A DNA stretch of 64,000 nucleotides from Candidatus Latescibacterota bacterium. GTDB taxonomy: Bacteria > Latescibacterota > UBA2968. Shown one piece after another: positions 3,218 through 17,757 of this stretch. Numbering within the stretch: the first letter of the stretch is position 1; each line of letters begins with the position of its first letter. The DNA lies in the NCBI GenBank assembly GCA_965204375.1, contig OZ241986.1, forward strand, positions 2,432,001-2,496,000. The letters are read 5' to 3'. The translations under genes and the position numbers were made by a program. The notes beneath the pieces are model-generated. The model worked only from the letters and a program-made list of their open reading frames with translations, was not told the DNA's origin and searched no databases.

Positions 3218-3280
3218 GGTGAAGACGCTTGATCAATGCGTAATACTATCCACCAAACTGAACAAAGGAGAGCCTGACCT

Positions 3281-4783
3281 ATGGCCCTATCCACCACTAT
3301 CAAATCCATCCAGGACATCATGCGTAAGGATGTGGGCGTCGATGGTGACGCTCAGCGCATTGGTCAACTTGTCTGGCTGCTATTTCTCAAAATATGGGAT
3401 GATCGAGAGCAGGAATTAGAGATGCTCGAAGACCATTTCAGGTCTCCTTTGATCGACGTAACCTGGATGGAGGAAGGCGAGACCCGCACCGCTGCGGACT
3501 TGCGCTGGAGTGCCTGGGCCGCTGATCCGGAGGGTGATACTGGCGATAAACTGCTCAGCTTTGTCAACGATACGCTATTTCCCGCGCTCAAGGGCATGGA
3601 GGTCGGATCGCTCGCAGAGGATGCGCGTGTGCTCCGCTGTCGCCTGGTGCGCAGCGTCTTTGAGGACGCTTACCAGTACATGAAATCCGGCACCCTGCTG
3701 CGACAGGTCATCAACAAAATCCAATCCGACATCGACTTCAACGACGCCACGAACCGGCACTTATTCGGAAATATCTACGAGCAACTCCTCAAAGATCTCC
3801 AGGGAGCCGGGAACGCTGGTGAATATTACACGCCGAGGGCAGTGACCCAATTCGCGGTGGATATGATCAATCCTCGCCTCGGTGAATCCATTCTGGACCC
3901 GGCCTGTGGAACTGGTGGCTTTTTGTCGTGTGCCATTGAGCACATTCGCCGGCAGGACGTAAAGACACCCGAACAAGAGGCTCAACTACAAGAAAGTATT
4001 CAGGGCGTAGAGAAGAAGCCTCTACCACACTTGCTTTGCACCACCAACATGATTGTGCATGGCATTGACGTACCAACTGGCATTCAGCACAAAAACTCTC
4101 TGTCCCGTCCACTACACGATATCGGCATGAGTGACCGGGTCGATGTGGTGCTTACCAATCCGCCATTTGGCGGCATGGAGGAGGACGGAATTGAGGGTAA
4201 CTTTCCAGCCCAGTTCCGTACCCGTGAGACCGCAGATCTGTTCCTGGTATTGATCGTGGAGTTACTCAAGCCCGGTGGCCGTGCCGCAGTAGTTCTACCG
4301 GACGGGACCTTATTCGGCGAGGGCGTGAAGACGCGCCTGAAAGAACGCCTGCTCACCGAATGCGAATTGCACACCATCGTGCGCCTGCCCAACGGGGTAT
4401 TCGCACCGTACACCAGCATCAAAACCAACCTGCTATTTTTTGAGAAAGGGAGACCGACCACCGAGGTTTGGTACTACGAGCACCCCTACCCGGAAGGCTA
4501 CAAGTCCTACTCCAAGACCAAACCGATGCGGATTGAAGAGTTTGAGCCAGAAAAAGCGTGGTGGGACAATCGGGTCGAAAGTGAGTTCGCGTGGAAAGTC
4601 GGCATTGACGAGATACGCGAGCGTGGCTTCAATCTCGACATCGCCAACCCCAACGCGGTTGAGAGCGGCCACGGCGATCCGGATAAACTATTGGCATTAT
4701 ATAAAAAGGAACAAATAGAGATGGCAAAAGTGCGGGATCAACTAAAGCAGGCGTTGTCCGAGGCATTGGAGAGAACAGCATGA
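3281..4783 (+). CDS. hsdM: Type I R-M N6-adenine methyltransferase M subunit
   Basis: GEYYTPR, SAM motif DPACGTGGF, catalytic NPPF; GGAG RBS upstream. Confidence 0.95.
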   Translation: MALSTTIKSIQDIMRKDVGVDGDAQRIGQLVWLLFLKIWDDREQELEMLEDHFRSPLIDVTWMEEGETRTAADLRWSAWAADPEGDTGDKLLSFVNDTLFPALKGMEVGSLAEDARVLRCRLVRSVFEDAYQYMKSGTLLRQVINKIQSDIDFNDATNRHLFGNIYEQLLKDLQGAGNAGEYYTPRAVTQFAVDMINPRLGESILDPACGTGGFLSCAIEHIRRQDVKTPEQEAQLQESIQGVEKKPLPHLLCTTNMIVHGIDVPTGIQHKNSLSRPLHDIGMSDRVDVVLTNPPFGGMEEDGIEGNFPAQFRTRETADLFLVLIVELLKPGGRAAVVLPDGTLFGEGVKTRLKERLLTECELHTIVRLPNGVFAPYTSIKTNLLFFEKGRPTTEVWYYEHPYPEGYKSYSKTKPMRIEEFEPEKAWWDNRVESEFAWKVGIDEIRERGFNLDIANPNAVESGHGDPDKLLALYKKEQIEMAKVRDQLKQALSEALERTA

Positions 4784-5622
4784 CGACGCGGGAATTTATA
4801 GAGGTCTTTGATACGATTGTGGAGGCGCCGGGGGGGATTGATCGGTTGAGGGAGTTGGTACTCCATCTTGCGGTGCGCGGGCGGCTGGTGCCGCAGAACC
4901 CGAATGATGAACCGGTGAGTATGTTGATTGCTGAAATTAAGGCAGAAAAAGAACGGCTCCTTAGTAAAAAAATCATTACCAAATCCCGCTACCCCTCCGG
5001 AGTCTCTATTGAACCAAAACCCTTTGAAGTTCCCGAAAAGTGGCAATGGTTTCGCTTGGGTGATGTCGGCGCAATAGTGGGGGGTGGCACTCCGAAGAGC
5101 AGTGAGCCTTCTTTCTGGAGTGATGGTCAAGATATTCCTTGGCTTACACCAGCGGACATGCGAGGACAGTCCTCTCGTTATATCTTGCGAGGGGCTCGCG
5201 ACATTACATCCGAGGGCCTCAATAGATCGTCCGCTCAGATGCTACCAGCAGGGTCAGTTTTGTTTTCAAGTCGGGCGCCGATTGGATATGTTGGTATTGC
5301 AGCCAATCCGCTCAGTACTAACCAAGGCTTCAAATCCTGTGTACCCTATATTCCAGCCATGTCGAATTATCTGTACGTATTTCTCAAGTATGCCGGGCCA
5401 GGAATTGACAAGCAAGCTACGGGAACGACATTTAAGGAAGTGCCAGGCAAAGAATTTGCACTTATTCCGGTACCGATCCCACCTCTTGCTGAACAGCATC
5501 GCATCGTCGCCAAGGTTGATGAGCTTATGGAACTGATTGACCGGTTGGAGCAACACCTCGTTGCCAAAGGGAAGTATCACGAAGCCTTCGCAGCGGCTGC
5601 CATACACCACACAGAAGATTGA
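4780..5622 (+). CDS. hsdS: Type I R-M specificity subunit, half-size (single TRD)
   Basis: LAVRGRLVPQ..DEP, P..W...LG and PIPPLAEQHRIVAKVDELM motifs. Only one TRD in 280 aa; ATGA overlap with hsdM. Confidence 0.85.
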   Translation: MTTREFIEVFDTIVEAPGGIDRLRELVLHLAVRGRLVPQNPNDEPVSMLIAEIKAEKERLLSKKIITKSRYPSGVSIEPKPFEVPEKWQWFRLGDVGAIVGGGTPKSSEPSFWSDGQDIPWLTPADMRGQSSRYILRGARDITSEGLNRSSAQMLPAGSVLFSSRAPIGYVGIAANPLSTNQGFKSCVPYIPAMSNYLYVFLKYAGPGIDKQATGTTFKEVPGKEFALIPVPIPPLAEQHRIVAKVDELMELIDRLEQHLVAKGKYHEAFAAAAIHHTED

Positions 5623-5712: not shown

Positions 5713-7083
5713 TCAACACAATGCAGTCGTATATCCAGGGTTGAGAGACAGAAAGTTTTGGGGATTGGGAACGGCTAAGCGATGATCAACAGAGAGCAGA
5801 TCGAGATCAATCAACTGATAGGGATTCTCGCCGTTTAGAAGGCGTAGCACTTGGGACAATACCAGCGTAGCAGCCACGGTGCCTACGAAGGGTGCGCCGA
5901 CCGCTTTGCCAGCCAGAAGTGTAACGCCGCAACGATCCAGTTCGCCACTTTTGAGCATTTCTTGATAGGCCGGGCGATCCTCAACTGTTTCGGAGAATGC
6001 CGTCGGTTTCCAAATCTCCTTTGCCGAACGTGAACCCGGTAGTACGTGCAGACGTATGGTACGGAAATTTTGTTGTCCTCTACCAAGCCCTGCTTCAACA
6101 ACCAGATCAAATCCTACTTGATCAAGTGCTCGCCTTCCAAGCGCATTATCCAAACCACACAACGCGATAGCTGGTTCTTCATCTTGGCGGTGGAAACTGT
6201 CATCAAACCGTCGCTCTTGTACCGCTGTCGCAAACCCGCGCCGTTCTGCCCAAGCAGCCATGGCACGGGTCTTTTTTTCACCCACCATTGTCGCGTTGCT
6301 CAAAATAGATGTGCTTTCAGTTGATGGAGTAATCTCGTCTATATCTTGCAGCACAAGAGAGAGATTTTCTGGATCCTTATAAGGCAGTAACCCAAGTCCC
6401 CAAAGATACGCTTGTCCTAGATGTCCAAGCCCAATCATCCAAAGTCGCGATGGAAGATAGGTTATCTGAGGTTCGTTTGGGTCAGATGCGAGCCAATTGT
6501 TATCTACTGTGGGTTGCCACAGCGATAGTCCTATCGGTCTTCTCCCCGCTGCAGAATCGCCTCTGTCCACAAACAGGAAGGCTTCATTGATCGCAAGGCC
6601 AGCGGACAGCATAGCCGCCAGTGGTATAGTAGGTCCAGGGGCTGGCTTTAGCACTGAATGAACTGGAAGGATGCCACCTCGCCAACCAGCGGCTGCCGTG
6701 CGGATATGAAATCTAGAGCATCTTGGTTGAGGACCTCCGCCGATAACAATGGTCGGCGTTCCATCATCAGAAGGTTCAAACGAGCCACCGAGTTCTGTCA
6801 CGGCCTCATGGAGCCTGCCCGGTAAAGGTAGTGGTAATTTCAGTGGCACATCTAAGTCGCCTTCTACGGAAACCCCGCCGAGGAATACACGCCGTCCAAG
6901 TGCAACCGCTGTCAACAACGCAATTTGATTGAGTGAATTTTGCGACTCAACTCCGTGGATGGTAAGCGCAAGGCGATAGCCTTGAAAGAGATTCTCAGCC
7001 TCGGCGAGAGTTCGGGCTTTTCCGCTATCAAGTGCGTACTTGACTAAGCGGTGTAGGTAATTGGCGTCTGGTTTGGTATTCAT
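5713..7083 (-). CDS. bilD: ThiF/E1-like ubiquitin-activating enzyme (BilD-like)
   Basis: Degenerate N-terminal adenylation-like domain plus an active one (IGLGHLG, QDID, GEKKT, LCGLDN..GR, EAGLG). Candidate catalytic Cys in DRCG. Last gene of a Ubl-E2-JAB-E1 operon. Confidence 0.8.
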   Translation of the reverse strand: MNTKPDANYLHRLVKYALDSGKARTLAEAENLFQGYRLALTIHGVESQNSLNQIALLTAVALGRRVFLGGVSVEGDLDVPLKLPLPLPGRLHEAVTELGGSFEPSDDGTPTIVIGGGPQPRCSRFHIRTAAAGWRGGILPVHSVLKPAPGPTIPLAAMLSAGLAINEAFLFVDRGDSAAGRRPIGLSLWQPTVDNNWLASDPNEPQITYLPSRLWMIGLGHLGQAYLWGLGLLPYKDPENLSLVLQDIDEITPSTESTSILSNATMVGEKKTRAMAAWAERRGFATAVQERRFDDSFHRQDEEPAIALCGLDNALGRRALDQVGFDLVVEAGLGRGQQNFRTIRLHVLPGSRSAKEIWKPTAFSETVEDRPAYQEMLKSGELDRCGVTLLAGKAVGAPFVGTVAATLVLSQVLRLLNGENPYQLIDLDLLSVDHRLAVPNPQNFLSLNPGYTTALC

Positions 7084-7095
7084 GGACAAATCTCT

Positions 7096-7614
7096 CTATA
7101 GACCGATGTGAAAAAAAGCCCTGCGAGCAGCGGGCGTAATGGTTTCCCAATGCTTCGCACCTTGGTAGCGATAGATACCGATTTGGCGCTTTGATATGGG
7201 ACCTGTAGCGAAGTGAGGAAGAATTAGTGCCAAATGACCTGCCTGTGCAATCATGGGATAAGCGCGATCTGACTCACTCTGCTGCGATCCACCAGGATGG
7301 ACATGAATATCGGCCACGACAACCAACCCTCTCTCTTTGCAAAGTGTCCAGAGCATCCCGAAGTATCGCCCGTCGAAGCGGACTATGCCGGTATCAAGGC
7401 AATGTGGATCGAGATCATCATACAGGACAAAATCAGTGATACGAGCACGTTGATCGTTTTGGTGACCTAGTAGAAAAGCACCGCTTTCCCTAGACTTACC
7501 GTGTCCCCGCTCCCGTAAGCAGACCAGCAAACGCCGCCAAAGAAACCAAGAACAGGACAACTCATGTCGCGGTGCAAAGAGGCGACGTATAGTCTCCGCT
7601 ATGAAGAAGTTCAT
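7096..7614 (-). CDS. bilC: JAB/MPN metalloprotease, deubiquitinase (BilC-like)
   Basis: JAMM motif: RESGAFLLG ... DIHVHP...QSESD. Start placed at ATG 7614, overlapping the E2 3' end. Confidence 0.85.
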
Positions 7615-8035
7615 GGACGATCTCCAAGTATTGAACAATGCCTTCTACCGGACGCCAGATTTTTGACGGTATCTCGGTTCTCCAGTTTTCATGCCCAGCG
7701 AAGCTTTCACGATCACAAGGCAGGTACAACGCAGAGCCATTCTTCCAGTCAGGGCGAAAAACTGCAGAAACGCGGCCACCTTGGCCTTGTGGCCAGAGAC
7801 TGAATTCCAAGATGGTATTTTGCTCGGGATCCCATGGGCCACCCGTAGGCGGGGTTTGTGGATACCCCTCGCAGTTGAAGCGCAACACATATTGACGCTT
7901 ATCCTTCGCGGTCACTGAGATCAAGGCAAAGGGCCAGTCAATACGAATCAGGCACCAGCGTCCTTCTACTTGTCCAAGGCGGAACGCAGCCTTGGACAAG
8001 TCAGACTCGAATGCCCGCTGGTCGGGGGTACTCAA
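7562..8035 (-). CDS. bilB: Prokaryotic E2 conjugating enzyme (BilB-like)
   Basis: UBC-like [13 protein letters not shown] segment and candidate catalytic Cys in ALYLPCDR; lies between the Ubl and JAB genes. Confidence 0.75.
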
Positions 8036-8541
8036 GCTATGCCTCCAGTTGAGCCGTTCACCCTCTCGTCAGGAGTAAGGTCAAATGCCTGGCTGCAATC
8101 AAGACAATCCACCAGTGTGCCGATATGCGTCCCAGGGGTCGGCCTTTCGTGAGTGCCTACGATTTGCAGAGCATACTCACCGGCGTCTTTTGGCTCCATT
8201 CCAAATGCCTTTTCTGCTGCCCAACACTTGACACGGGCGATGGTCGCACTTGGCCCGAAACTGTGATCAACTGTGTGGCCATTGAAGGTCACGCTGACTT
8301 TGACGAGACAACAGCGATTCAGGTGGATCTTTATACCCGTCTCCTCAACGCAATCAATCACCTTCCAGTCTTCGTCAAGTGGTTCATCTTTGTCCTCCAA
8401 GAAGAGACACACGTCGCTGGCGAGGCTGTGCTTGTCGATCAACTCAGCCTTGACTATTGCGAATGTAGCGTCGTCTTCAACTTCGACATGCTGGATCTCG
8501 CGGATCCCTTCACACTGGTAAAACAGATCGAGTGTATCCAT
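8032..8541 (-). CDS. bilA: Tandem ubiquitin-like (ISG15-like) protein BilA
   Basis: Two ~80-aa beta-grasp-like halves joined at HLNRC; C-terminus [10 protein letters not shown] followed by a 6-aa tail; AGGAGG RBS; first gene of the operon. Confidence 0.75.
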
Positions 8542-8601
8542 AATACTATCCTCCTAAGAGCTAGAGCGAAGCTCCATTGCCCGTCTCTGCTCTTCACTTT
8601 A

Positions 8602-8633
8602 TTAATCGAATGAACAGACAGAAAGCGGAAAGC
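8602..8633 (-). promoter_or_regulatory. Putative alternative-sigma promoter of bilABCD (GCTTTCCG-N17-CGATTAA)
   Basis: Identical boxes and spacing also occur at 13612-13643; this copy is 61 nt upstream of the bilA ATG. Confidence 0.7.
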
Positions 8634-8646
8634 TTTAAAAAAATTT

Positions 8647-11600
8647 TTATGGGAGAGTTAGTGGTCCGCGAGGCGTAGCAGCACAGACAAAAAAATGCGG
8701 GCATCGCGGGCATGTAAATTCGTCGATATTGGAGGGAAACCATCCTTGCGTAATCTCAGCCAACATTTCATTAATCTTACGTCGGTGATTTTGGAGTCTT
8801 GTCGACGAGATCGGCACATTGTCGGATATCCCATCTACAAGGTGCAGCGCTCGAATCACCGCATCGGTACCAAAGTGTTCTTGACCGGCCAACATGTATA
8901 ATATGTAGTCAAGACGGCTATATTCATTACTACGCTTGTGACCAGGGCGAACCTTATATAAAGCGACTTTTTTGTTAGGTAAATCGGTGATCTCATTTGG
9001 TTTTACAAACACGCGACCATTTGGAAAATCTACTGCTAACGGTTCAGCCTCACGGGAATGCCATCCAGTTCTGGCTCTAATTAGGGTACCGACTAATTGC
9101 AAGGCGAGGCGGCGGTATTCGTCAGCGTAAGTATGTGCAACGGGCCCGTGTTTGCTCCAGATTATGTCGAATGTGGCTTCAGCTTCGGCGAGCGTCGGTT
9201 TGACTTCGCGCCAGCGCTCGGATACCCATTGTATTAGTTTGTAGAGACAATCATGGGCTTGCGAATAGGCAGTCGATTTACGAGCACTACCAAGGCCCAA
9301 TATATGGGTGTAGAAGAAACGGCGAGGACATTTCTCATAGGAAATAAGCTGACTGTCTGTGACGTGCCATTCGGTAGATTGCTCCACTTGGATAGGTATC
9401 GGACTTTGTATGTTAGCTGGCCGCGGCAAGACCACCGGATGGACAATTTTGTCGATTGTCCTATCTGGTAGCCAATCTAAGAAAGGAGATGATGATCGGT
9501 TCTTGCCACTGACACTTCGACGTGCTAAGTGGAGGCGCAGATAGGTCCGCGCTCGCGAGAGCGCAACGAAAAACAGGCATTCCTCCTCGTTTTGGTGGTT
9601 CAGCTTGGCCTCTTTAGTGACTGAAAAACCATCTACCCCTTCAATCATGCCGACTGGCGGTGGGCATCGCACGCCGCGGTACGACGTTGGCAAGCTCGAA
9701 ACCGTCAGTCCGGGTACATGGACCGCTTCAAACTCCAGACCTTTACTACCATGAATGGTCATCAGCCTCACTGCATTCATACGGAGTGCGGCGACAGGCA
9801 CTTGACGTAAATCTCGCTCTTCAGCGAGTAGTACGAGCCGACGGATACGTTCTAGCGTTCGCTGAATCAGTAAACCCGTGCCACTCGGAATCTGCTCGCG
9901 GATAAAATTAAGGAACTGCCAAACTGCAATACTCCGAATGCGGTCAGTGACCATCGTAGCTTGGGCCATCTCACGGACGAGGCTAGTGCGGTCAAGCAGA
10001 TACGTTGAAAGAAACTCCCAAGCGGACAAGTTAGTAGAGAGTCCCGATAGGTCCTGCGCGAGACGAGTAAGTGCTGACGCACCTTCAGGAGAGATACCTT
10101 GAGCCTTAGCGAGTGTTTCTATACCCGAAAGGGCTGGCTGATTGCTCTCTCGCAAATAGCGCGAGGCGGTATAGGCATCTTGCAACGAGAGACCGTAGCG
10201 CGGCATTGCTCCTACCCGCGTAAGACCATCACCAAATGGATCAACCGCAAGGCTTAGAAGTGCTAGTAAATCACGCACTTCCTCGCGCTCAAACAAGCTA
10301 CCGAGATGAAGAGAAGGAATGCCGTATGCTTCAAGTGCTGTGGCGATTTCACTAAGACGACGGTTTGAGCGACAGAGTACGGCCTGATCGCGAAGGGGAA
10401 CGCCAGCACATTCGAGTTCTCGAATGCTTCCGGCGATACCTCCGACTTCGTCGTCGGGTGTGTTGTAACATCGGACTTCTGGTTTTCCGGGACCAATGCC
10501 TCGGTCAGCATCAAGGTTGAGTGGTAACATGTCCTTGGATTTGGATGCACCCATCTGGGGAGCTACAGCAACGAAACTCGCAACAATCTGCTCCGTTGAT
10601 CTGTAGTTGGTAGTAAGTTGATCAATTACGGCCCCAGGATAGTCGTCGCAAAAACGAGCCATGTTGGTAGAGGACGCTCCCCGGAAGCGGTATATGGACT
10701 GGCGTGAGTCTCCAACTACCCACAGACGCTTGCCATCACCGGCGACTGCTTTCAACAAGCGTGCGCTCGCCCGGTTTACATCTTGGTACTCATCAACCAG
10801 AAGATGTCGGTGCCGCAATTGAACTGCGTGCTTGATTGCCGGATCGGATTCCAATAGTAGTACAGGTTGCATAATGAGATCGCCAAAGTCGATAGCATCT
10901 TGTTCACTCATAACGCTTTCATAGAGGTCGTATATATCGGCGATTTCCAAACACTTCTCGGCTGCTATGCGAGCTTCATCGTCGCATGCAGATGATCGCA
11001 TAGCCTCAGCGAGCTTGCGATAGTGGAACCGATCAGCAAGTTCATCCTTAGCCCGCGAGATGGCAGGAATTACATCTCGTAGTACTATCGTTGGGTCCCA
11101 GAAGTTGCGGTAGTGGACAAGGGGCAAAGTCGGAAGGATATCTTCAAGCATCTCAATCGCATCACTGCGGTCTAACAAAATTGGATCAGGGGATAAGCCA
11201 AGGCGGTCATGGTGTCGACGTATCAGATCAAGCCCGAAAGCATGGAATGTCCCAATCCAAATACGTTCAGCGGCCTCGGGCACTATGGCCATAAGTCGTT
11301 CCAGCAGTTCGCCAGCGGCTCGGTTTGAGAAGGTCAGGACGAGCAAAGCGGAAGGATCAATACCCTCTGCTATAAGTGATTCTACACGCTTTACTAACGT
11401 CCGCGTTTTTCCCGTTCCCGGCCCAGCCTGAAGCAGAAACGGGGCGTTGCGGTGTGTAGCTGCACGGTCCTGTGATGGATCCGAGATCAATGTCTGGATT
11501 GAAGCCATGGTAGAAGTTTCACCTTCTACTGTTTCATCTTCTACCGTGGGAAGTAAACAGGCATCAAATATCTGCTGCCGAACGAGTGCCTTTGGCAGAT

Positions 11601-12093
11601 TCATTTGCGAAGCGATAGCCGAGGCGGTCATTTTCTCTTTAAGATGAAGCCGACGTGCGAGACTCCGAGGTAATAGAAATTCCCGAGCGAAAACATCGGC
11701 CTGTAGTTCGCGTCGCTCCCGCGTACCATAGTCTTCGACACGTTGCAAACCAACGGGTACCGTCTCTGTTGAACGGGATGGGTCAATGTCACTCTCAGTA
11801 CAAGCCATCGAACCAGTGTGGGCATGTGCATGTCCAAGTTCATGAGCCACTAACAACGCACGTTTAATGACATCCTCTGTCTGTTCACAGCAGATTGTCC
11901 TGCTCTGTTCGTCAAACACAGCCCGGGCATTTTTAAGAGCTGGATCACCTGGTTCAAGCCAGAAGAGTTCAAGGTCGAGGTAAGCCACAGCAGCAGTAAT
12001 AAGTGCCGTAGTATCCAAAGGGTCTATCCCCCCTGAGATAATCTTATCGTGTAGATGTGCCGCGGACTTTCGAATTGGCTCAAATGCGTCCAT
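8647..12093 (-). CDS. Fusion of ImmA/IrrE Zn-metallopeptidase, UvrD/SF1A helicase and degenerate PD-(D/E)XK nuclease with Fe-S cysteines
   Basis: AHELGH...ELQADVFAREFLLP; helicase motifs AGPGTGKT, TFSNRAA, DEYQD, GDSRQSIYRFRGA, NYRS, TIHGSKGLEF and VALSRAR; CPRRFFY and CPRCPHFFVC at the C-terminus. Confidence 0.85.
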   Translation of the reverse strand: MDAFEPIRKSAAHLHDKIISGGIDPLDTTALITAAVAYLDLELFWLEPGDPALKNARAVFDEQSRTICCEQTEDVIKRALLVAHELGHAHAHTGSMACTESDIDPSRSTETVPVGLQRVEDYGTRERRELQADVFAREFLLPRSLARRLHLKEKMTASAIASQMNLPKALVRQQIFDACLLPTVEDETVEGETSTMASIQTLISDPSQDRAATHRNAPFLLQAGPGTGKTRTLVKRVESLIAEGIDPSALLVLTFSNRAAGELLERLMAIVPEAAERIWIGTFHAFGLDLIRRHHDRLGLSPDPILLDRSDAIEMLEDILPTLPLVHYRNFWDPTIVLRDVIPAISRAKDELADRFHYRKLAEAMRSSACDDEARIAAEKCLEIADIYDLYESVMSEQDAIDFGDLIMQPVLLLESDPAIKHAVQLRHRHLLVDEYQDVNRASARLLKAVAGDGKRLWVVGDSRQSIYRFRGASSTNMARFCDDYPGAVIDQLTTNYRSTEQIVASFVAVAPQMGASKSKDMLPLNLDADRGIGPGKPEVRCYNTPDDEVGGIAGSIRELECAGVPLRDQAVLCRSNRRLSEIATALEAYGIPSLHLGSLFEREEVRDLLALLSLAVDPFGDGLTRVGAMPRYGLSLQDAYTASRYLRESNQPALSGIETLAKAQGISPEGASALTRLAQDLSGLSTNLSAWEFLSTYLLDRTSLVREMAQATMVTDRIRSIAVWQFLNFIREQIPSGTGLLIQRTLERIRRLVLLAEERDLRQVPVAALRMNAVRLMTIHGSKGLEFEAVHVPGLTVSSLPTSYRGVRCPPPVGMIEGVDGFSVTKEAKLNHQNEEECLFFVALSRARTYLRLHLARRSVSGKNRSSSPFLDWLPDRTIDKIVHPVVLPRPANIQSPIPIQVEQSTEWHVTDSQLISYEKCPRRFFYTHILGLGSARKSTAYSQAHDCLYKLIQWVSERWREVKPTLAEAEATFDIIWSKHGPVAHTYADEYRRLALQLVGTLIRARTGWHSREAEPLAVDFPNGRVFVKPNEITDLPNKKVALYKVRPGHKRSNEYSRLDYILYMLAGQEHFGTDAVIRALHLVDGISDNVPISSTRLQNHRRKINEMLAEITQGWFPSNIDEFTCPRCPHFFVCAATPRGPLTLP

Positions 12094-12096
12094 AGA

Positions 12097-12750
12097 TTAG
12101 AACCTCAGAAGTTGATGCTTTTGTCCCTCGTTGAGAGCCGAACTCTGAATAGCCTCGACAAAGCTCTGTTGCTGGCTGCTCTCAGGCTTATTGTCAGCCT
12201 TGTAAAACTGATGACTAGCACTCACACTTGGTGCAGCAAAGTGGGCAGTTAATAGGTTAGGTGTAATCCCTAGTACATCTGCAAGGTACTGTAGAAAACT
12301 ACGTGGAATGGTATCCGGCTTGATTTGGCGATCTCGCAGCTTGATAACGAAAACAGTGTTCACGTCGATTCGATCCGCTAAAGCTCGAAAATCTACCTGG
12401 CTTAGTTCAGCGATGGGATTGGGAGCATCTGTAACTCCCAGCAAAGGAACGTGGTCACTTGGCGCCCTGGTCGCTTGGCGCACCGTGTGTAAACGATTCT
12501 GGAATCGACTTATTGCGCGCGAGACGGCGGGACTCACATAGTTTAGATCAATCTCCGCCTCCGCGTCGACTTCTAGCTCAGGTCGGAGAACGTCCATAGC
12601 GAGTTCAATAGCGAATTCCGTGAGTGAATCGGCATACTGAGGGAACCGCCGAACGAAATCGTCAAGAAGTTCTGCGTCGGGTACACTCTTCGCTAGCGAA
12701 AGATCATACAACACATCACGCAATGGTGCCCCGCTGGGGATCAGGGTCAA
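12097..12750 (-). CDS. Hypothetical protein, putative anti-sigma domain plus XRE-like HTH
   Basis: GGAGGAGG RBS and TTG start 2 nt after the sigma stop. Helical N-terminus (LLDDFVRRFPQYADSL) and HTH-like FRALADRIDVN...LQYLADVLGI. Confidence 0.55.
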   Translation of the reverse strand: MTLIPSGAPLRDVLYDLSLAKSVPDAELLDDFVRRFPQYADSLTEFAIELAMDVLRPELEVDAEAEIDLNYVSPAVSRAISRFQNRLHTVRQATRAPSDHVPLLGVTDAPNPIAELSQVDFRALADRIDVNTVFVIKLRDRQIKPDTIPRSFLQYLADVLGITPNLLTAHFAAPSVSASHQFYKADNKPESSQQQSFVEAIQSSALNEGQKHQLLRF

Positions 12751-12752
12751 GG

Positions 12753-13553
12753 TTATACCTCCTCCTTAAATATAGAAAGTTTTACTGCTGCCCTTGACAG
12801 GCGGTTACGAATAGTTCGGCCAGAGACTTTGCAGATAGTCGCTACTGTCACTTCATCGGGGTTCCGAGATTCAATCTTGTATCCCATTACATGGCAGAGT
12901 ATGACAGCCTCACGCTCGTCATCCGGCAAGGTATCAATCGCTTCGTAAATCTCTTTTAGTAGAGCAGCACTGTCGGTTTTCTCTGGACTCTGCAAGGCTT
13001 CTATGAGTCGGGCGGGAATTTCCTTATGGGTGTGAGACTCGGGCGCATCGGCTTGACTCGGAAGGGGTCTGAATCGCTTGAGACGAGTTCTTTCACTTCG
13101 GATCAGATCTTTGTAAAAAGCACGAAACGCCAGATTGAAACGACATTCGAAATAGTCAAGACGGTCACGATTTTCTTCCGTACCATCGGTGGCAAATAAC
13201 TCGCTGAACTGCCCAAGTACTTCTTCCCGGACATATGCCGCGTTTGAAAGTTCGTTATCCTGTATTTTGGCCAACAACATTTTTTCACATCGGGTGAGCA
13301 AAATAGGAAACACTGCATTTAATATAGCGTCGTCGTTATTTCGACAAGCATTCCGGATTAGATATACCAGACATTCAGAAAGTAAATAGTTGGGTAACTG
13401 AGCGTCAGTGACAGTGAGGCGGTGCTTAAGCGTTGCCAACTTCTGGGAAAGAATCTTATTGATCTGTGCCTCTACTCGCTCCGGACGGACGTATAAATTT
13501 CCGTCTGAATTTCTTTTCGTCAATGGGCGAGCCATTATCTTCTTTTTACGCAT
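12753..13553 (-). CDS. ECF-like sigma-70 family RNA polymerase sigma factor
   Basis: Region-4 signature IYEAIDTLPDDEREAVILCH...VATICKVSGRTIRNRLSRA and a region-2-like segment. Start moved to ATG 13553 (AAGGA RBS); ATG 13535 is an alternative. Confidence 0.75.
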   Translation of the reverse strand: MRKKKIMARPLTKRNSDGNLYVRPERVEAQINKILSQKLATLKHRLTVTDAQLPNYLLSECLVYLIRNACRNNDDAILNAVFPILLTRCEKMLLAKIQDNELSNAAYVREEVLGQFSELFATDGTEENRDRLDYFECRFNLAFRAFYKDLIRSERTRLKRFRPLPSQADAPESHTHKEIPARLIEALQSPEKTDSAALLKEIYEAIDTLPDDEREAVILCHVMGYKIESRNPDEVTVATICKVSGRTIRNRLSRAAVKLSIFKEEV

Positions 13554-13611
13554 ATCTTCCTTTCTTTTTTTATGCAACATCAGATAGCGAGTAGGGTTTC
13601 TTCCTACTCTT

Positions 13612-13643
13612 TTAATCGTATTGTAATGGAAAAGCCGGAAAGC
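13612..13643 (-). promoter_or_regulatory. Putative autoregulatory alternative-sigma promoter (GCTTTCCG-N17-CGATTAA)
   Basis: Same boxes and spacing as 8602-8633; 59 nt upstream of the sigma ATG. Confidence 0.7.
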
Positions 13644-13741
13644 GATCTTCACTATCGTTCATTATGATCGTCAACCTCTAATAAAAATCGCATAATAAAT
13701 GTTAGCCGATTAACCACTTGCGGCTAAAGGCTCTGTTGTGT

Positions 13742-13785
13742 TATCTTTACAAATAGAAGATACCAGATTATAATATTTTCGTCAA
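13742..13785. promoter_or_regulatory. Overlapping opposed sigma-70 promoters with a candidate XRE operator
   Basis: Plus strand TTTACA(13746)-N17-TATAAT(13769); minus strand TTGACG(13785)-N17-TATCTT(13762); inverted repeat TATCTT-N9-AAGATA at 13742-13762. Confidence 0.6.
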
Positions 13786-13809
13786 TCCCCTATTTCCGAA
13801 ATCGACAAC

Positions 13810-14181
13810 ATGAAAAGAAAAATTTCATCTAAACCATCTGAGGTCTTCAAGGACCGCCTTCGAGCGGCACGGGAAAATCTCCGTCAAATGACTCAGGTTG
13901 ATCTCGCCAGAGCAATCGGTCTGCCGCCAAGTTCCATTGCTCATTTCGAGAGTGGTAATAGAAAGCCCTCGTTTGATAATCTACACAAGATAGCCAACGC
14001 GCTAAACGTGACGACCGATTATCTCGTTGGTCGAGCGGATGATCCAAACACCACCGCGTCGGCCGATCCGATCTATCGGCACGTTGCGAATCTCACGGAT
14101 CAGAACCGCAGAACCGCCGAGGACTTTCTCCGTTTTCTCTCCGAACAAGACCGGAGACAACGCGAGGGCGATCATCAATGA
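13810..14181 (+). CDS. XRE-family HTH repressor (CapH/ImmR-like)
   Basis: MTQVDLARAIGLPPSSIAHFESGNRKPS HTH; C-terminal IYRHVANLT oligomerisation-like segment; ATGA overlap with the peptidase. Confidence 0.9.
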   Translation: MKRKISSKPSEVFKDRLRAARENLRQMTQVDLARAIGLPPSSIAHFESGNRKPSFDNLHKIANALNVTTDYLVGRADDPNTTASADPIYRHVANLTDQNRRTAEDFLRFLSEQDRRQREGDHQ

Positions 14182-15065
14182 GGAAAGTATCCAGCCATCG
14201 TCAAAAGTCGCTGGTGCGAAGAGCTGAACGGTTACTCCAAGACGAAAGCCTTTTGGAGTTGCCTGTTGACCTTGAAGCCCTGGCCCAGACCCGAGGGATA
14301 TTCGTTCAGGAAATGGAGTCGGACGAGGAAGGGGTATCGGGCATGCTCCTGCGCTATGGTGACACATTTGGGATCCTATATTCTACTCAAATTCCGAACA
14401 TAGGATTTCAGCAGTTCAGTATCGCCCACGAACTCGGTCACTACTTTATTGACGGCCATCTGGACCAAATTCCATTCGACGGTAATATGCACCGTTCACG
14501 GGCAGGTTTCGTCTCCAATAATTATTACGAACGCGAGGCCGACCACTTCGCCGCCGGTCTCTTGATGCCAATTACACCCGTTCGCAGGATTATTGACAGA
14601 TCTCCCGGCGGTTTTGGCAGCATCGAAGCTATTCAGCAGGAAACGAATGCCTCTCTTACAGCCGCAGCTATCCGCTATGTTGGAATGACAGACGAGGCTG
14701 TGGCCATCATTGTCAGTAGCGATGGAATCGTCGATTATTGTTTTATGTCCGAGACTATGAGGTCGTTAGAAGGAATAGAGTGGCTACATAAAGGTACGCT
14801 GGTCCCATCAGATACCACTACAGAGTCTATTTGGAATAAATCGGAAGAAGAGCAGCGCGAGGCTTATGCCGAAGACGACGTCGATATCACGGCTTGGTTT
14901 GGGGGCCACAGGTCAGTTGCAGCCTGGGAGGAAGTAATCGGACTCGGAACCTATGGACGAATACTAACAGTTCTGACCTGTCCTGATCTAATCGATGATG
15001 ACTATATGGACGAGGTCTCTGACGAGGCATTGGAGGAGAGTTGGACACCTCGGTTTCGGCGTTAA
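14178..15065 (+). CDS. ImmA/IrrE-family metallopeptidase (CapP-like)
   Basis: FSIAHELGHY, EREADHFAAGLLMP, SLTAAAIRY and a C-terminal GAF-like region. Confidence 0.9.
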   Translation: MRKVSSHRQKSLVRRAERLLQDESLLELPVDLEALAQTRGIFVQEMESDEEGVSGMLLRYGDTFGILYSTQIPNIGFQQFSIAHELGHYFIDGHLDQIPFDGNMHRSRAGFVSNNYYEREADHFAAGLLMPITPVRRIIDRSPGGFGSIEAIQQETNASLTAAAIRYVGMTDEAVAIIVSSDGIVDYCFMSETMRSLEGIEWLHKGTLVPSDTTTESIWNKSEEEQREAYAEDDVDITAWFGGHRSVAAWEEVIGLGTYGRILTVLTCPDLIDDDYMDEVSDEALEESWTPRFRR

Positions 15066-15162
15066 GCAACCGTTAGGCTATATCCATGCATACTGTAATG
15101 GAATTACTTGAATACATGCGTCGTGTAAAACAGTGGGTAAAGGAGTTTTAAAAATACTTCTT

Positions 15163-16590
15163 ATGGAAAAGTTTAAAAAAATAAAACAACTTTCAGAACT
15201 AAACTTTTCAAATAGAGGAGAATCATTTGTTGAGTCTAAGTTTTTGACGCCTCTATTAGATTGTTTAGGCTATGAGAGTCATAATGACTATGAGGTTCGC
15301 CGACACGGTGATACAGGAACATCTTTCAAACTTAATTATCCCCCAGTAGAGAAAGGAGCAAAAAAAGTAAAGTACTACAACCCAGATTATATGCCTACAA
15401 TCCGCAAGAAGATATTTTGGATTATAGAAGCAAAATCGCCTAAATTGGTGCCTTACCCTTTTGAGTATAAGTACATTGTGCAAGGACTTCAGTACTGTAT
15501 TCATCCCGAAATCCAAGCAAAATACCTTGTTCTGAGTAACGGTAAACACACCTGTATATATGATCCTCATTCAGCGATATTCTTTAATGAGAACATCTAT
15601 GAGCCAGTGTTTGAGTTTAGAAGTAATGAAGTTTATGAAAAATGGGAGGAAGTATATAATTTTTTAGGCGTTGAGAAGCTAAGATCAAAAATAGAAGACA
15701 GCCTAAAAAGTTATTATGAAAAACTGTGCCTATCTTCTCTTGATGAGGACTATCCTGAAAAAGTTGGAAAAAAAATAACTAGCGAGCAATCCGCACTAAA
15801 ACATCAAATACGGAACCACGTAGCAAAGCTATATGTTAAAATGACAGATGACGACTACTCCCGGCTTCAACATAAGTACGAAAACTTTTCATTAGCTAAT
15901 CTAGAGAATTATATGAAGAATCCTGTAACAAGAGGTAAAGAGCCATCCCAACATTATGTAGAAAAGTTGCTCAAAGAAAAGCCGCCTGATGAGATATTTT
16001 CTTTGCTTATTTCTAATTACAACGATTTCAGTTTTTTCCAAAAACAACACTCTATGGTTGCGGTCTGCCACTTGCATAATCTAATAGGTAATTCTCAATT
16101 GAAACAGACTATAAAGGCTTATGTCCTTCGCAAAATATCAGACAAGATTCCCATACTGAATAAAGCAGAAAGTGCCTTTCTAAGAGTGATTAGAAAACTA
16201 TTAATTATCGGAGAATATCCCAAAATAAGACAAGTGCTATCTGAGTATTTAAGGTCGCTTCCTGAAATAGATAGATTTGTCAATCCGCCAACGCCTCTAT
16301 ACTACACATATCCAATTGAGCTAATACTTCACGATCATTATTTTAAGATTCTTAAGAATATGACTTCAGAAGAGTTAGAGTTGTTAACCCAAAAACTGCT
16401 TAAAGAAGAAGCCGAAATTGAACAAGCCTTTACAGAAGCTTGGGAATCACTACCAGGTAATGAAAAAGAAATAAATGGTTTCGAGTCTTATGGATTGGGG
16501 GACAAAATGTATACACTTGGAAATATAGCTAAGAATTTTGGTATAATCTCACGAGAACACTTAGACTCTTTGCGAATTATTCGACACTAA
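15163..16590 (+). CDS. AT-rich hypothetical protein with an N-terminal HsdR_N-like PD-(D/E)XK nuclease domain
   Basis: PDY...IIEAK...QGLQY...VLSNG pattern followed by a long helical region. Start uncertain (15133 or 15163). Confidence 0.6.
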   Translation: MEKFKKIKQLSELNFSNRGESFVESKFLTPLLDCLGYESHNDYEVRRHGDTGTSFKLNYPPVEKGAKKVKYYNPDYMPTIRKKIFWIIEAKSPKLVPYPFEYKYIVQGLQYCIHPEIQAKYLVLSNGKHTCIYDPHSAIFFNENIYEPVFEFRSNEVYEKWEEVYNFLGVEKLRSKIEDSLKSYYEKLCLSSLDEDYPEKVGKKITSEQSALKHQIRNHVAKLYVKMTDDDYSRLQHKYENFSLANLENYMKNPVTRGKEPSQHYVEKLLKEKPPDEIFSLLISNYNDFSFFQKQHSMVAVCHLHNLIGNSQLKQTIKAYVLRKISDKIPILNKAESAFLRVIRKLLIIGEYPKIRQVLSEYLRSLPEIDRFVNPPTPLYYTYPIELILHDHYFKILKNMTSEELELLTQKLLKEEAEIEQAFTEAWESLPGNEKEINGFESYGLGDKMYTLGNIAKNFGIISREHLDSLRIIRH

Positions 16591-16742
16591 CAGTTGGGGA
16601 ACCTGTAGTCATTGCTTCTATTTTGTTATCTAGGGATGATAAGGTGTTGTAGATAATCAATGCCTCGCTGGAACAGGATCATGGCAGGAACGAAATCTCG
16701 CTTTTATATACACGGCTCAATCAGAGATAGAGGACGACAACC

Positions 16743-17291
16743 ATGGCTATCCCAAATCCTATCATCAAGTTTACCTACGAAGATTACCTGAACACGCCGG
16801 ACGACAAGCGTTACGAACTTTTGGACGGAGAGTTAGTTATGCCCCCTGCCCCAGGAGAATTTCATCAAAGTGTCTCTATCCAACTGGGGGCAAAACTGTT
16901 CCTATTCACATCTGAGCATAGCCTGGGCCGGATCTATCACGCGCCCTTCGACGTGGTGCTATCAGATATGGATGTGGTGCAGCCCGACCTGATCTTCGTC
17001 TCCAATGAACGTGCCGATATCATCACTCCTGCGAATATTCAAGGTGCACCAGACCTCGTCGTCGAAATTCTGTCTCCTTCCACAGCAACACGAGACAAGA
17101 CCTTCAAGCGTAGCCTGTATGCCAGGCACGGTATAACCGAGTACTGGATGGTCGATCTAACCGAAAAAAACATAACAATCCTGCGCCTTGGCGAGCGCGG
17201 ATTCGAGGTAGTCAATACCTATGGTGAAGGGGAAACATTGACTTCGCCCACATTGCAAGGATTCACTTTGAACCTCGACGACATATTTTAA
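16743..17291 (+). CDS. Uma2-family (DUF820) endonuclease
   Basis: RYELLDGEL, VQPDL, PDLVVEILSPST, K..LYA..GI.EYW.VD. Confidence 0.9.
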   Translation: MAIPNPIIKFTYEDYLNTPDDKRYELLDGELVMPPAPGEFHQSVSIQLGAKLFLFTSEHSLGRIYHAPFDVVLSDMDVVQPDLIFVSNERADIITPANIQGAPDLVVEILSPSTATRDKTFKRSLYARHGITEYWMVDLTEKNITILRLGERGFEVVNTYGEGETLTSPTLQGFTLNLDDIF

Positions 17292-17316
17292 GTGCTCGCA
17301 GCAGGGCCACCGAATT

Positions 17317-17757
17317 ATGACTATCAATACAACTCGCTGGGATTCAGCAGAGTACCTCAAAACGGAAGAAGATGTGCAGTTATACCTGGAAGCCTGCCTT
17401 GAAGAAGCAGGAGATGATCCCGTTTTTATAGCCCATGCATTGGGTGTAATTAATCGAGCCAAAAATATGAGCCAGTTCGAGAGCATCAAACAAGGATTAA
17501 CAGAAGCGATTGAACACGCGGCAGGCCGGGTAAGTGAGGCGGTTGTGCATTTTCCACCCACCCCTGATGTGAAATCCATACGGAAGCAAGTTGGGATGAC
17601 GCAAACGGCCTTTGCAGCCACGTTTGGCGTTAGTCTCAGTACGCTACGTCGCTGGGAGCGCGGTGACCGAACCCCTCAGGGACCCGCACGAGTGTTGCTA
17701 CATTTGGTCGCCCACGAACCTCAGGCGGTTTTGAGGGCGTTGGAGAAAGTGCGTTGA
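17317..17757 (+). CDS. Chimeric antitoxin: N-terminus of an HI1420-type addiction antidote fused at MSQ to a HigA/YiaG-like HTH
   Basis: WDSAEYLKTEED..YLEA...ALG is followed by FESIKQGLTEAI...MTQTAFA..FGVS.STLRRWERG.R.P.GPARVLL. Confidence 0.65.
   Translation: MTINTTRWDSAEYLKTEEDVQLYLEACLEEAGDDPVFIAHALGVINRAKNMSQFESIKQGLTEAIEHAAGRVSEAVVHFPPTPDVKSIRKQVGMTQTAFAATFGVSLSTLRRWERGDRTPQGPARVLLHLVAHEPQAVLRALEKVR

Follow-up and report, generated by a model that had tools for sequence, protein, structure and literature searches.

A Bil ubiquitin-like defence operon with a putative controller made of a sigma factor, a candidate anti-sigma protein and a peptidase–helicase fusion

What switches on a Bil ubiquitin-like defence operon, and does the operon bring a controller of its own? 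The question is raised by a 64,000-nt stretch of a Candidatus Latescibacterota genome (contig OZ241986.1; hereafter the window), in which bilABCD had been predicted from the sequence to be wired to its own sigma factor through a two-protease cascade. The reading that we favour, and hold to be reasonably probable as a whole, places Bil under a controller consisting of a sigma factor, the 217-residue protein p217 as its anti-sigma and a peptidase–helicase fusion.

The Bil operon and its neighbours

Open reading frame (ORF) calling combined with PADLOC and Pfam recovered all nine genes of the original prediction (Table 1). Its layout, with bilABCD downstream of a tightly packed three-gene operon read in the same direction, agrees with our coordinates, which give gaps of 2 nt (sigma gene to p217), 3 nt (p217 to fusion gene) and 105 nt (fusion gene to bilA). 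The proposed IrrE-peptidase/UvrD fusion does contain Pfam Peptidase_M78 and UvrD domains, and the divergent XRE and IrrE genes were recognized by PADLOC as capH and capP in their canonical divergent position. The bilABCD genes are a type I Bil ubiquitin-like anti-phage operon. The match of BilC to Pfam Prok-JAB (22.7 bits) is under the cut-off of 25, and the true start of bilC is probably internal to its longest ORF. For the sigma gene, the longest ORF spans 12753–13652, the database start is at 13553 and the start conserved among homologues in the family alignment (MARPLTK) is at 13535. The surroundings form a defence island, with type I restriction-modification genes at 893–5622 and Uma2 and PD-(D/E)XK genes to the right.

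Table 1. Features of the locus, in window positions
Feature	Position	Strand	Description
bilD	5713..7089	-	E1-like, 458 aa; PADLOC BilD 1.4e-165, profile positions 3-451 of 453
bilC	7096..7638 (longest ORF)	-	JAB-type deubiquitinase-like; PADLOC BilC 1.1e-67
bilB	7562..8035	-	E2-like, 157 aa; PADLOC BilB 2.1e-62; Pfam DUF7665 1.8e-70
bilA	8032..8541	-	Ubiquitin-like protein, 169 aa, C-terminus ...STGGIA; PADLOC BilA 2.2e-52
Promoter-like bipartite motif 5′ of bilA	8597..8634	-	TTTCCG-N17-CGATTA, 29.4 bits
M78 peptidase/UvrD/nuclease-like fusion	8647..12093	-	1148 aa; Pfam Peptidase_M78, UvrD-helicase, UvrD_C and PDDEXK_1
p217	12097..12750	-	217 aa; predicted anti-sigma N-terminal ~95 aa, folded C-terminal domain without known family
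ECF-like sigma	12753..13553	-	266 aa by database gene call; Pfam Sigma70_r4_2
Promoter-like motif 5′ of sigma gene	13607..13644	-	TTTCCG-N17-CGATTA, 21.0 bits
Perfect inverted repeat	13702..13727	.	TTAGCCG-N12-CGGCTAA; capH–sigma spacer; candidate CapH operator
Sigma-70-like promoter match 5′ of capH	13746..13774	+	TTTACA-17-TATAAT, 11 of 12, consensus match only
capH	13810..14181	+	XRE-type HTH repressor, 123 aa; PADLOC capH 2.1e-22; Pfam HTH_3 2.6e-16
capP	14178..15065	+	M78 peptidase, 295 aa, HELGH motif; PADLOC capP 3.8e-58, profile positions 3-241 of 242

Conservation of the unit and its promoter-like motif

A search of species-representative genomes returned 70 loci, 58 of them evaluable (with sequence running on for 7.3 kb or more past the sigma gene), and the order sigma–p217–fusion–bilABCD was complete in 47 of these (44 by the script rule, plus L029, L038 and L050, in which the p217 matches fell outside the rule). 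The incomplete evaluable loci were two without bilD, one without the helicase (L070) and eight remnants without Bil. Among 80 metagenome loci, 32 were evaluable and 31 carried the complete seven-gene unit, the other (L163) lacking a p217 match only. The flanks were unrelated between loci (370 ORFs in 324 clusters). On plasmids, nine BilD loci were fetched from 39 records; wherever BilD was at least 40% identical, sigma and p217 were present as well (6/6), five times together with the helicase. More distant sigma homologues (27–31% identity) led to nine further plasmid loci, in six of which Bub-type cargo (multiubiquitin, ThiF and DUF6527) followed the trio, while the remaining three were a Bil-like operon, an IS-interrupted locus and one cut at the record end; in the plasmid Bub locus L083, the gene table shows no helicase gene in the gap. 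Judged by gene order, the trio and bilABCD are a conserved seven-gene unit, and what appears to be a dedicated controller travels with Bil across phyla. The original prediction had proposed a survey of how often such genes adjoin Bil or other defence cargo; since the linkage of the trio to ubiquitin-like defence cargo recurs and is nearly exclusive, the prediction stands as far as linkage is concerned.

A bipartite motif, TTTCCG-N17-CGATYA, is present in 50 of the 53 regions 5′ of bilA on which our matrix was trained, with the same spacing in all 50 instances matched by regular expression. Trained solely on these sites, the matrix was run over both strands of 1.25 Mb. Of 64 loci, 54 had a match 5′ of the sigma gene and the other 10 had none there that reached 14 bits; 16 matches lay elsewhere. 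The two sites in our locus rank first (bilA) and second (sigma gene) both in the window and in the 6.34-Mb genome, where the next position, at 18.9 bits, has no gene downstream. In diverged lineages, both sites carry a lineage-specific variant, such as TTCCGATT...GCGACTT in Xanthomonas, as read by eye. A conserved promoter-like motif thus lies at exactly the two places expected from the proposal that sigma drives itself and bilABCD, and we regard this control of its own operon and of Bil as well supported by upstream sequence comparison. Two variants without a helicase, L070 and the Cupriavidus locus L073, retain sigma, p217, both motifs and Bil, and the helicase is therefore dispensable for the sigma–Bil link.

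Sigma, p217 and the peptidase–helicase fusion

The sigma protein had been called ECF-like, and sequence comparison shows no more of a sigma than region 4: Sigma70_r4_2 matched with 30.6 bits (cut-off 25.7), the PDB profile match was confined to the region-4 half, and region 2 escaped detection by Pfam, NCBIfam and PDB profile search, the NCBIfam sigma70-ECF model reaching 30.3 bits where 42.9 is the cut-off. In a fold search, PDB ranks 1–11 were all ECF sigmas (SigH, SigL, sigmaE/RseA, RpoE/NepR and AlgU/MucA), with probabilities of 0.97–1.0 and ∼200 aligned columns covering both halves, at modest E-values (from 2e-3) and low TM-scores (0.20–0.37). By its predicted structure, the protein resembles an ECF sigma.

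For p217, neither Pfam, PADLOC nor NCBIfam gave a family match, and the fold search returned nothing under an E-value of 1. The helix–turn–helix (HTH) originally assigned to it is not borne out by its 24 homologues, none of which matched a Pfam HTH family save for one YdaS_toxin match (E 0.099). Its other label, anti-sigma, draws its support from modelling: the predicted complex with sigma scored 0.79 (runs of 0.84, 0.79 and 0.70), compared with 0.29 for the best control, and 58 of 80 solved complexes attained this mark, as did 2 of 110 mismatched pairs, a calibration that is only rough for the custom alignments used here. The contacts agreed between runs to at least 59%, the partner pLDDT was at least 72, and residues 2–94 of p217 contacted both halves of sigma (residues 82–154 and 187–240). 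These models suggest that the N-terminal half of p217 likely holds sigma as an anti-sigma.

We consider it improbable that the sigma-like protein is instead an ordinary LuxR/GerE-type DNA-binding activator with p217 as a co-regulator. Such an activator would fit a protein whose C-terminal HTH (region 4) is the sole part detectable by sequence, and some homologues are labelled 'LuxR family' or 'response regulator' by PGAP; it fits less well with a non-palindromic, two-box motif of invariant 17-nt spacing lying ∼55–65 nt before the start codons, with top fold matches that align both halves to ECF sigmas, or with the predicted bridging of both sigma halves by p217, as is known of class I anti-sigmas.

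The M78 domain of the fusion has capP as its best PADLOC match (9e-10). The HExxH motif, Walker A and B, helicase motifs III and VI and four cysteines (C922, C1128, C1131 and C1137) are invariant in 48 of 48 fusion sequences, and C98, D102 and D104 are kept in at least 47. This cysteine followed by two aspartates resembles the cysteine-switch loop that the Calloji et al. preprint assigns to CapP (C114, D117 and D118). The fusion further matches Gabija GajB helicase models strongly (PADLOC, 4.6e-73) and AddA and RecB partially (NCBIfam). Like the AddAB and RecBCD helicase-nucleases, it places a PD-(D/E)XK-like domain after a UvrD-family motor, and that domain has four cysteines in what we take to be the AddB/Cas4 pattern; unlike those enzymes, the fusion is a single polypeptide with an N-terminal peptidase inside a regulatory cassette, and has no evident nuclease catalytic motif. 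Where RecB-type nucleases carry the catalytic D...D/ExK ('DYKTG'), the fusion proteins read R-R-V-R-T-G or L-Y-K-V-R-P-G, so the catalytic motif has apparently been lost from the Fe-S nuclease-like domain. This replacement speaks against the trio being a defence system in its own right, with a helicase-nuclease directed at foreign DNA and Bil as no more than its usual neighbour, as do the fixed gene order, the constant spacer of ∼105–112 nt with its sigma motif before bilA, and the exchange of cargo (Bil or Bub) while the design of the trio persists. Even with the GajB match and a Pseudomonas koreensis plasmid, in which the trio is followed by an IS and no cargo, we find such a system very improbable.

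CapH/CapP and related switches

The CapH/CapP switch is already known; in the survey of the Chambers et al. preprint, it accompanies 25 of 162 type II Bil operons, with divergent placement the rule. By phmmer, none of 150 other cassette loci (70 genome and 80 metagenome) had a CapH/CapP pair, and in the 126 of 189 listed upstream-neighbour ORFs that were scanned, the only other M78 protein was ArdC-like and the sole capH-like HTH was part of a HipBA pair. By gene content, the pair is outside the conserved module.

In the two-tier cascade of the original prediction, CapP would cleave CapH after DNA damage and derepress the sigma operon, and only then would the helicase-peptidase cut p217. The pair is canonical by its PADLOC matches, its genes overlap by 4 nt, and the 274-nt spacer that separates it from the divergent sigma operon contains the perfect inverted repeat as well as sigma-70-like matches that face each other (the whole region has 7 such matches, fewer than the shuffle mean of 10.5), a geometry also found in the type II operons with CapH/CapP that the Chambers et al. 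survey describes. The sigma–capH junction is retained in contigs from two other studies (X4 record 4 and X7 record 25), which are ∼90% identical to the window; they are close relatives and so not independent occurrences of the linkage. With the pair missing from the 150 other loci, and a cassette that carries its own autoregulatory motif and occurs elsewhere without CapH/CapP, we consider the cascade unlikely.

Alternatively, CapH/CapP could be a mere defence-island neighbour that controls itself, and perhaps the co-directional gene at 15133–16590, rather than the sigma operon. The position of the locus within such an island, the start of that gene, which looks HsdR-N-type nuclease-like, 67 nt past capP, and a Paraburkholderia plasmid with co-directional HTH and ImmA/IrrE genes upstream of the cargo would all fit. 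However, the G+C content of the gene (35–36%, versus ∼46–51% for capH/capP and the cassette) suggests a separate insertion, and divergent placement is the rule in the Chambers et al. survey, which leaves this explanation doubtful. In our estimate, the odds that a lineage-specific CapH/CapP places the sigma operon behind a first gate are roughly even.

Our literature search found no published description of the sigma/p217/peptidase–helicase cassette, in agreement with the original prediction. The nearest is one sentence in the Lau et al. 2022 preprint, which notes that 24 CBASS systems encode a sigma factor next to capH/capP: there too an M78 peptidase with its small partner and a sigma-70-family sigma adjoin an immune operon, but in that passage the sigma is mentioned and not studied, CapP stands alone, and neither a helicase fusion nor a link to Bil or Bub is described. 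In Myxococcus xanthus, the ECF sigma DdvS and its anti-sigma DdvA control a defence island (PMC11506125); DdvA is reportedly transmembrane, no peptidase-helicase is known to take part, and the genes under its control are CBASS and CRISPR. CapH and CapP themselves, like IrrE/DdrO and ImmA/ImmR, provide an M78 zinc peptidase that senses DNA damage and inactivates an adjacent small regulator, turning the adjoining immune operon on, and the fusion peptidase matches the capP model and keeps a Cys plus Asp-Asp loop like the CapP cysteine switch. Unlike in CapP, a whole UvrD motor and an Fe-S domain take the place of the GAF/ssDNA-binding part, the presumed target is a predicted sigma-holding protein rather than a repressor, and the output would be activation by a private sigma rather than derepression. 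In the CalpL–CalpT–CalpS system of type III CRISPR, a defence-linked protease has been proposed to release an ECF-type sigma through cleavage of the anti-sigma; that protease is said to be of the Lon type and triggered by cyclic oligoadenylate, not by DNA via a helicase, and its proteins to be unrelated to those of the cassette.

In the sigma/p217/fusion controller that we favour, the UvrD motor would meet abnormal DNA, such as the single-stranded DNA or ends of a phage, and this would open the cysteine-switch loop of the peptidase, which could then cut or remove p217 and release sigma. In this lineage, the divergent CapH/CapP DNA-damage switch may gate the sigma operon first. The putative sigma promoter motif precedes both the sigma operon and bilA, and free sigma should therefore, on the motif evidence, amplify itself and switch Bil on.

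Gene content and recurrence of the Bil locus

The locus comprises seven co-directional genes: a trio made up of a sigma-like gene, the 217-aa gene p217 and a peptidase–helicase fusion gene, followed by bilABCD. PADLOC recognized the last four on the minus strand in the type I Bil gene order, that is, Ubl, E2, JAB deubiquitinase and E1. Together with the PADLOC and Pfam matches, the ORFs bear out the gene inventory of the original prediction, which had listed bilABCD, the sigma/p217/fusion trio with gaps of 2–3 nt, and a divergent pair of XRE and IrrE genes. BilA ends in ...STGGIA, i.e. in GG plus two more residues, so trimming by BilC would be needed for conjugation. Trimming by BilC has reportedly been described for type II Bil by Chambers et al. 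For Collimonas Bil, the available part of a preprint describes phage protection via conjugation of the Ubl to phage proteins (Hor et al.).

Because it is flanked by a type I restriction-modification set and further nuclease-like genes, the locus can be placed in a defence island. For the 485-aa gene downstream of capP, the nearest protein-atlas clusters were unnamed or contained 'HsdR N-terminal domain' proteins; it is possibly a single-gene defence gene, or cargo of CapH/CapP.

Coordinates of the genes and sequence elements in and around the Bil locus (window positions)
Feature	Positions	Strand	Details
Seven-gene unit	5713–13553	−	co-directional
Sigma-like gene	12753–13553	−	longest ORF to 13652; homologue-conserved start 13535; Pfam Sigma70_r4_2
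p217 (217 aa)	12097–12750	−	2-nt gap after sigma gene; no Pfam match
Fusion (1148 aa)	8647–12093	−	3-nt gap after p217; Pfam Peptidase_M78, UvrD-helicase, UvrD_C, PDDEXK_1
bilA, bilB, bilC, bilD	8541–5713	−	105 nt after fusion gene; all four PADLOC models, 2e-52 to 1e-165
capH	13810–14181	+	PADLOC 2.1e-22, profile 3–102 of 103
capP	14178–15065	+	PADLOC 3.8e-58, profile 3–241 of 242; HELGH visible
Type I restriction-modification set, complete	893–5622	+	hsdR 893–3217, hsdM 3281–4783, hsdS 4780–5622; convergent with bilD
485-aa gene	15133–16590	+	start 67 nt after capP; 35–36% G+C; weak HSDR_N and ABC-3C CTD11 matches
Uma2-family putative endonuclease, HTH antitoxin-like protein, DUF2357 + PDDEXK_7 protein	16743–17757 and 21004–22620	+ and −	further defence-island content
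bilA-upstream motif	8597–8634	−	29.4 bits; training-type site
Sigma-upstream motif	13607–13644	−	21.0 bits; 54 nt before annotated start 13553, 72 nt before conserved start 13535
bilA leader	8542–8602	−	same place in 32 loci
Hairpin GAGTAGG/CCTACTC	13589–13609		7 bp, perfect; right after −10 box
Inverted repeat	13702–13727		perfect; capH–sigma spacer

We carried out a gene-neighbourhood survey, as the original prediction had proposed, by scanning one genome per species with the sigma alignment as query. This yielded 70 loci, which span Latescibacterota, Alpha-, Beta- and Gammaproteobacteria, Acidobacteriota, Binatia, Verrucomicrobia, Myxococcales and others. Of these, 58 extend 7.3 kb or more past the sigma gene on its downstream side and could be evaluated; the trio recurred with Bil, in the order sigma–p217–fusion–bilABCD, in 47 of these 58 (44 by a scripted rule, plus L029, L038 and L050, where the p217 ORF starts outside the rule yet is visible). 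The remaining loci were two that lacked only bilD, one without the helicase (L070) and eight decayed remnants without Bil. Metagenomes, scanned independently, contributed 80 loci, 32 of them evaluable; 31 were complete, and one missed just the p217 match. Outside the unit the loci have unrelated genes, as expected of a mobile module: 370 ORFs there fell into 324 clusters. The seven genes thus form one conserved unit. Many cassette copies lie on conjugative plasmids, and four loci (L027, L102, L104 and L105) have ArdC-like anti-restriction genes on the upstream side.

BilD relatives were present in 39 plasmid records, nine of which, spread over the range of identities, were fetched. Sigma and p217 genes lay upstream in each of the six with at least 40% identity, in five cases together with the helicase. 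At 35% identity a co-directional HTH and ImmA/IrrE pair stood in place of sigma and p217, at 33% neither arrangement was found, and at 29% there was a divergent XRE regulator. The helicase-less variants L070 and L073, the latter from a Cupriavidus plasmid, keep sigma, p217, both copies of the promoter-like motif described below and bilABCD, so this core can work with another input. In L073, a reverse-oriented 295-aa protein without known family occupies the helicase position.

The sigma homologue itself was found in 76 plasmid records, 44 of them from Acinetobacter, and a tblastn search against 50,697 phage records gave no match. We fetched nine further plasmid loci, picked from distant sigma matches (27–31% identity). 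In six, from Agrobacterium pusense, Leptolyngbya, Acinetobacter soli, Acinetobacter pittii, Mesorhizobium and Cereibacter, the trio precedes genes for a multiubiquitin protein, a ThiF-family protein and a DUF6527 protein; such cargo is a type II Bub operon by the definition given in the available text of Ye et al. For A. soli, no helicase gene is annotated in the cassette gap; in A. pittii, the helicase has the Peptidase_M78, UvrD and PDDEXK_1 domains too. As for the other three loci, one continues into a four-gene operon that is Bil-like (PADLOC BilA and BilD), one is followed by an IS, and the third is cut by the record end.

A two-box element ahead of the sigma and cargo genes

In most loci a spacer of ∼105–112 nt separates the fusion gene from bilA. 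It holds TTTCCGG(G)TT followed by CGAT(C/T)A, and the span is identical in all 50 instances. We built a weight matrix for this motif (TTTCCG-N17-CGATYA) from 45 unique sites ahead of bilA and no sigma-upstream sites. The 64-kb window contains exactly two matches of at least 12 bits, one ahead of bilA and one ahead of the sigma gene, and in the whole 6.34-Mb genome these two sites rank first and second by matrix score. The third genome-wide match (18.9 bits) was discarded, as it reads antisense into a gene. The letters between the boxes differ at the two window sites, so they are not copies of a duplicated segment. When the 70 species loci were scanned, a match of at least 14 bits preceded the sigma gene in 54 of the 64 evaluable loci and bilA in 50 of 53, the latter count being circular because these sites are the training set; 16 matches lay elsewhere in 1.25 Mb, with both strands scanned. 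Sigma factors read just such elements, non-palindromic, with two boxes at fixed spacing and ∼55–65 nt ahead of the start codon. The occurrence of the motif at both places fits the earlier proposal that the sigma would drive both itself and bilABCD.

Where the element diverges, it does so at both places: by eye, we read a variant of their own in Xanthomonas and Variovorax (TTCCGATT...GCGAC/AT) and another in Sinorhizobium medicae (TTTCCGAT...GGTTGTA). In Bub-linked cassettes, TTACCG-N17-CGAT lies 76–81 nt before the cargo gene (7/7 loci), and a second motif falls within the sigma gene, in its 3′ part at ∼+555 to +590 and just before the p217-like gene (8/8; L080–L088). The Bil-linked loci L012, L025 and L052 have a similar match within the sigma gene; no internal copy was found in the sigma gene of the window. 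Tandem motifs, in two or three copies, stand ahead of bilA in L022, L042 and L058. L024 and L027 carry an extra strong motif (27–29 bits) ∼1.8 kb ahead of their sigma genes, at or just before the start of a same-strand ORF of 505–521 aa (8183–9700 in L024, 8140–9705 in L027), which is possibly an additional target gene.

The sequence between the motif and bilA is also conserved, and this leader is ∼56–75 nt long in 39 of 43 unique cases and 88–111 nt in the other four. RNAalifold returned no consensus structure for 33 bilA leaders. In a pair of small hairpins drawn by hand, 77% of cells were paired versus 70% in shuffles, with double changes in 18 cells versus 9. A hairpin with compensatory changes (e.g. 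GTGGC/GCCAC, GAAGC/GCTTC), together with a second stem that reaches the ribosome-binding site, is thus moderately supported. The predicted leader of the sigma transcript contains a perfect hairpin as well.

The sigma-like protein, p217 and the fusion

Region 4 of the sigma-like protein was matched by Pfam Sigma70_r4_2 (30.6 bits, cut-off 25.7), and a profile search of the PDB matched RpoE at 1.3e-7. Region 2 was not detectable by sequence, and NCBIfam sigma70-ECF scored 30.3 against a cut-off of 42.9. An AlphaFold model (pLDDT 79) was searched by fold; PDB ranks 1–11 were all ECF sigmas (SigH, SigL, sigmaE/RseA, RpoE/NepR, AlgU/MucA and CnrH/CnrY), matched with a probability of ∼1.0 over ∼200 aligned columns, yet with E-values of just 2e-3 to 1e-2 and TM-scores of 0.20–0.37. 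Traits of ECF genes at the locus, all of them computational, are the motif 5′ of the sigma gene and a partner gene 2 nt after it. PADLOC 2.0 and NCBIfam contained no model for either the sigma or p217.

p217 was modelled (pLDDT 73) with four N-terminal helices, disorder at residues 57–68 and 95–107, and a compact helical C-terminal domain. Foldseek found no PDB fold below E 1, just weak and short likenesses to XRE-type HTH domains; a profile search of the PDB gave two matches at E ∼0.5, and a Pfam scan of 24 p217 homologues revealed no recurrent family. The predicted complex of sigma and p217, in contrast to the best control (0.29), scored 0.79 (runs 0.84, 0.79 and 0.70), with at least 59% of contacts shared between runs and a partner pLDDT of at least 72. 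Among 80 solved complexes, 58 attain the mark for this score, as do 2 of 110 mismatched pairs, a calibration that is just rough because we supplied our own alignments, and the pass may partly reflect likeness to sigma/anti-sigma complexes already solved. In the model, p217 residues 2–94 contact sigma residues 82–154 and 187–240, i.e. both halves. Class I anti-sigma domains likewise sit across both sigma halves. The role of p217 as a putative anti-sigma factor is thus supported by a model.

Across 48 fusion sequences, HExxH, Walker A and B, helicase motifs III and VI and four cysteines were invariant, and C98, D102 and D104 after HExxH were nearly so. For the nuclease-like domain, we inspected 14 rows and the 90% consensus of an alignment of the 48 sequences. 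RecB/AddB-type PD-(D/E)XK nucleases have catalytic acidic residues and a lysine. These residues were not evident in the fusion, where the expected catalytic position reads R-R-V-R-T-G (L-Y-K-V-R-P-G in the window), so that the protein resembles a sensor and not an effector that cuts DNA. The best PADLOC match of the peptidase domain was capP (9e-10), covering only profile positions 46–133 of 242. C98, D102 and D104 resemble the cysteine-switch loop of CapP, whose C114, D117 and D118 are proposed, in the available text of a preprint, to be displaced by ssDNA (Calloji et al.). Where CapP has a C-terminal HTH and a GAF ssDNA groove, the fusion has a helicase. Judged by sequence, its N-terminal domain would work like CapP, yet it is no CapP orthologue.

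CapH/CapP and the control of Bil and Bub operons

An XRE-type HTH gene (capH) followed by an M78 gene (capP) with a 4-nt overlap is a canonical pair. Here it is divergent from the sigma operon and faces that operon, not bilA. In the common spacer of 274 nt lie a perfect inverted repeat and sigma-70-like matches facing either way. The accessible part of the preprint by Chambers et al. reports the divergent CapH/CapP arrangement in 25 of 162 type II Bil operons. The original prediction was a cascade in which CapH/CapP gates the sigma operon and the fusion peptidase then acts on p217; this two-tier reading seems to us somewhat unlikely. A phmmer search of the 150 other cassette loci found no CapH/CapP, making the pairing unique among 151, and a Pfam scan covering 126 of 189 listed upstream-neighbour ORFs found no CapP. 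The sigma gene and capH are also joined on contigs of ∼90% identity from two other studies, which indicates that the pairing is stable in this lineage, as distinct from an independent recurrence. Contigs of two runs (X6 and X7) leave 15426–16628 uncovered, a gap that carries no evidential weight. That CapH/CapP is a mere neighbour of the cassette is tentatively possible. The sole other M78 match among the scanned neighbours was ArdC-like, not CapP, and a CapH/CapP-like pair in L009 turned out to be HipB/HipA, its capH-like HTH belonging to HipBA.

The cassette as a controller of Bil is well supported by the sequence comparisons, and the computed basis for its action consists of the linkage, the common motif, the ECF-like fold, the predicted sigma–p217 clamp and the intact peptidase and motor sites. 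At rest, p217 would hold the sigma. Engagement of abnormal DNA by the UvrD motor would unlock the peptidase, which, we infer, would remove p217 by proteolysis; the freed sigma would then transcribe its own operon and bilABCD. We regard the full proposal, a new family of immune-operon controllers acting as self-amplifying, orthogonal switches in which a helicase patrolling DNA unlocks, on phage-type DNA, a tethered CapP-like peptidase that destroys a dedicated anti-sigma, a private sigma drives Bil or Bub, and nesting under CapH/CapP, a second and independent DNA-damage switch, makes two different DNA signals coincide before commitment in this lineage, as unlikely in its entirety.

The cassette combines known kinds of control, namely peptidase–regulator switches and sigma/anti-sigma control of defence. 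CalpL/T/S is said to exemplify the latter. So does DdvS/DdvA, according to the available text of its paper (PMC11506125). The Bil and Bub regulators named in the accessible parts of the literature, CapH/CapP, CapW and CapK/CapS, are repressor switches (Millman 2022, Hor 2023, Chambers 2023, two 2024 Bub preprints, the CapK/CapS paper and the CapP mechanism preprint), and those parts make no mention of a helicase or sigma factor as a regulator of Bil or Bub. A full-text literature search found no paper on the sigma/p217/helicase cassette, in agreement with the earlier statement that no description was known. The nearest is a sentence in the available text of Lau et al. 2022 on 24 CBASS systems in which a sigma-70-family sigma factor accompanies capH and capP.

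If its proposed role holds, the cassette would be a positive controller of Bil and Bub with its own sigma and helicase sensor, as opposed to the published repressor switches, and would account for operons that are kept off until they are switched on. It may also be one reason for the use of an inducible promoter, and not the native one, in the cloning of Bil operons; the reason stated in the available part of the preprint by Millman et al. is phylogenetic distance from model hosts. The cassette would further offer a compact orthogonal sigma/promoter pair and make testable the question of which DNA structure signals infection to a bacterium, and the extra CapH/CapP pair at this locus would provide a natural case for the stacking of two DNA-sensing switches.
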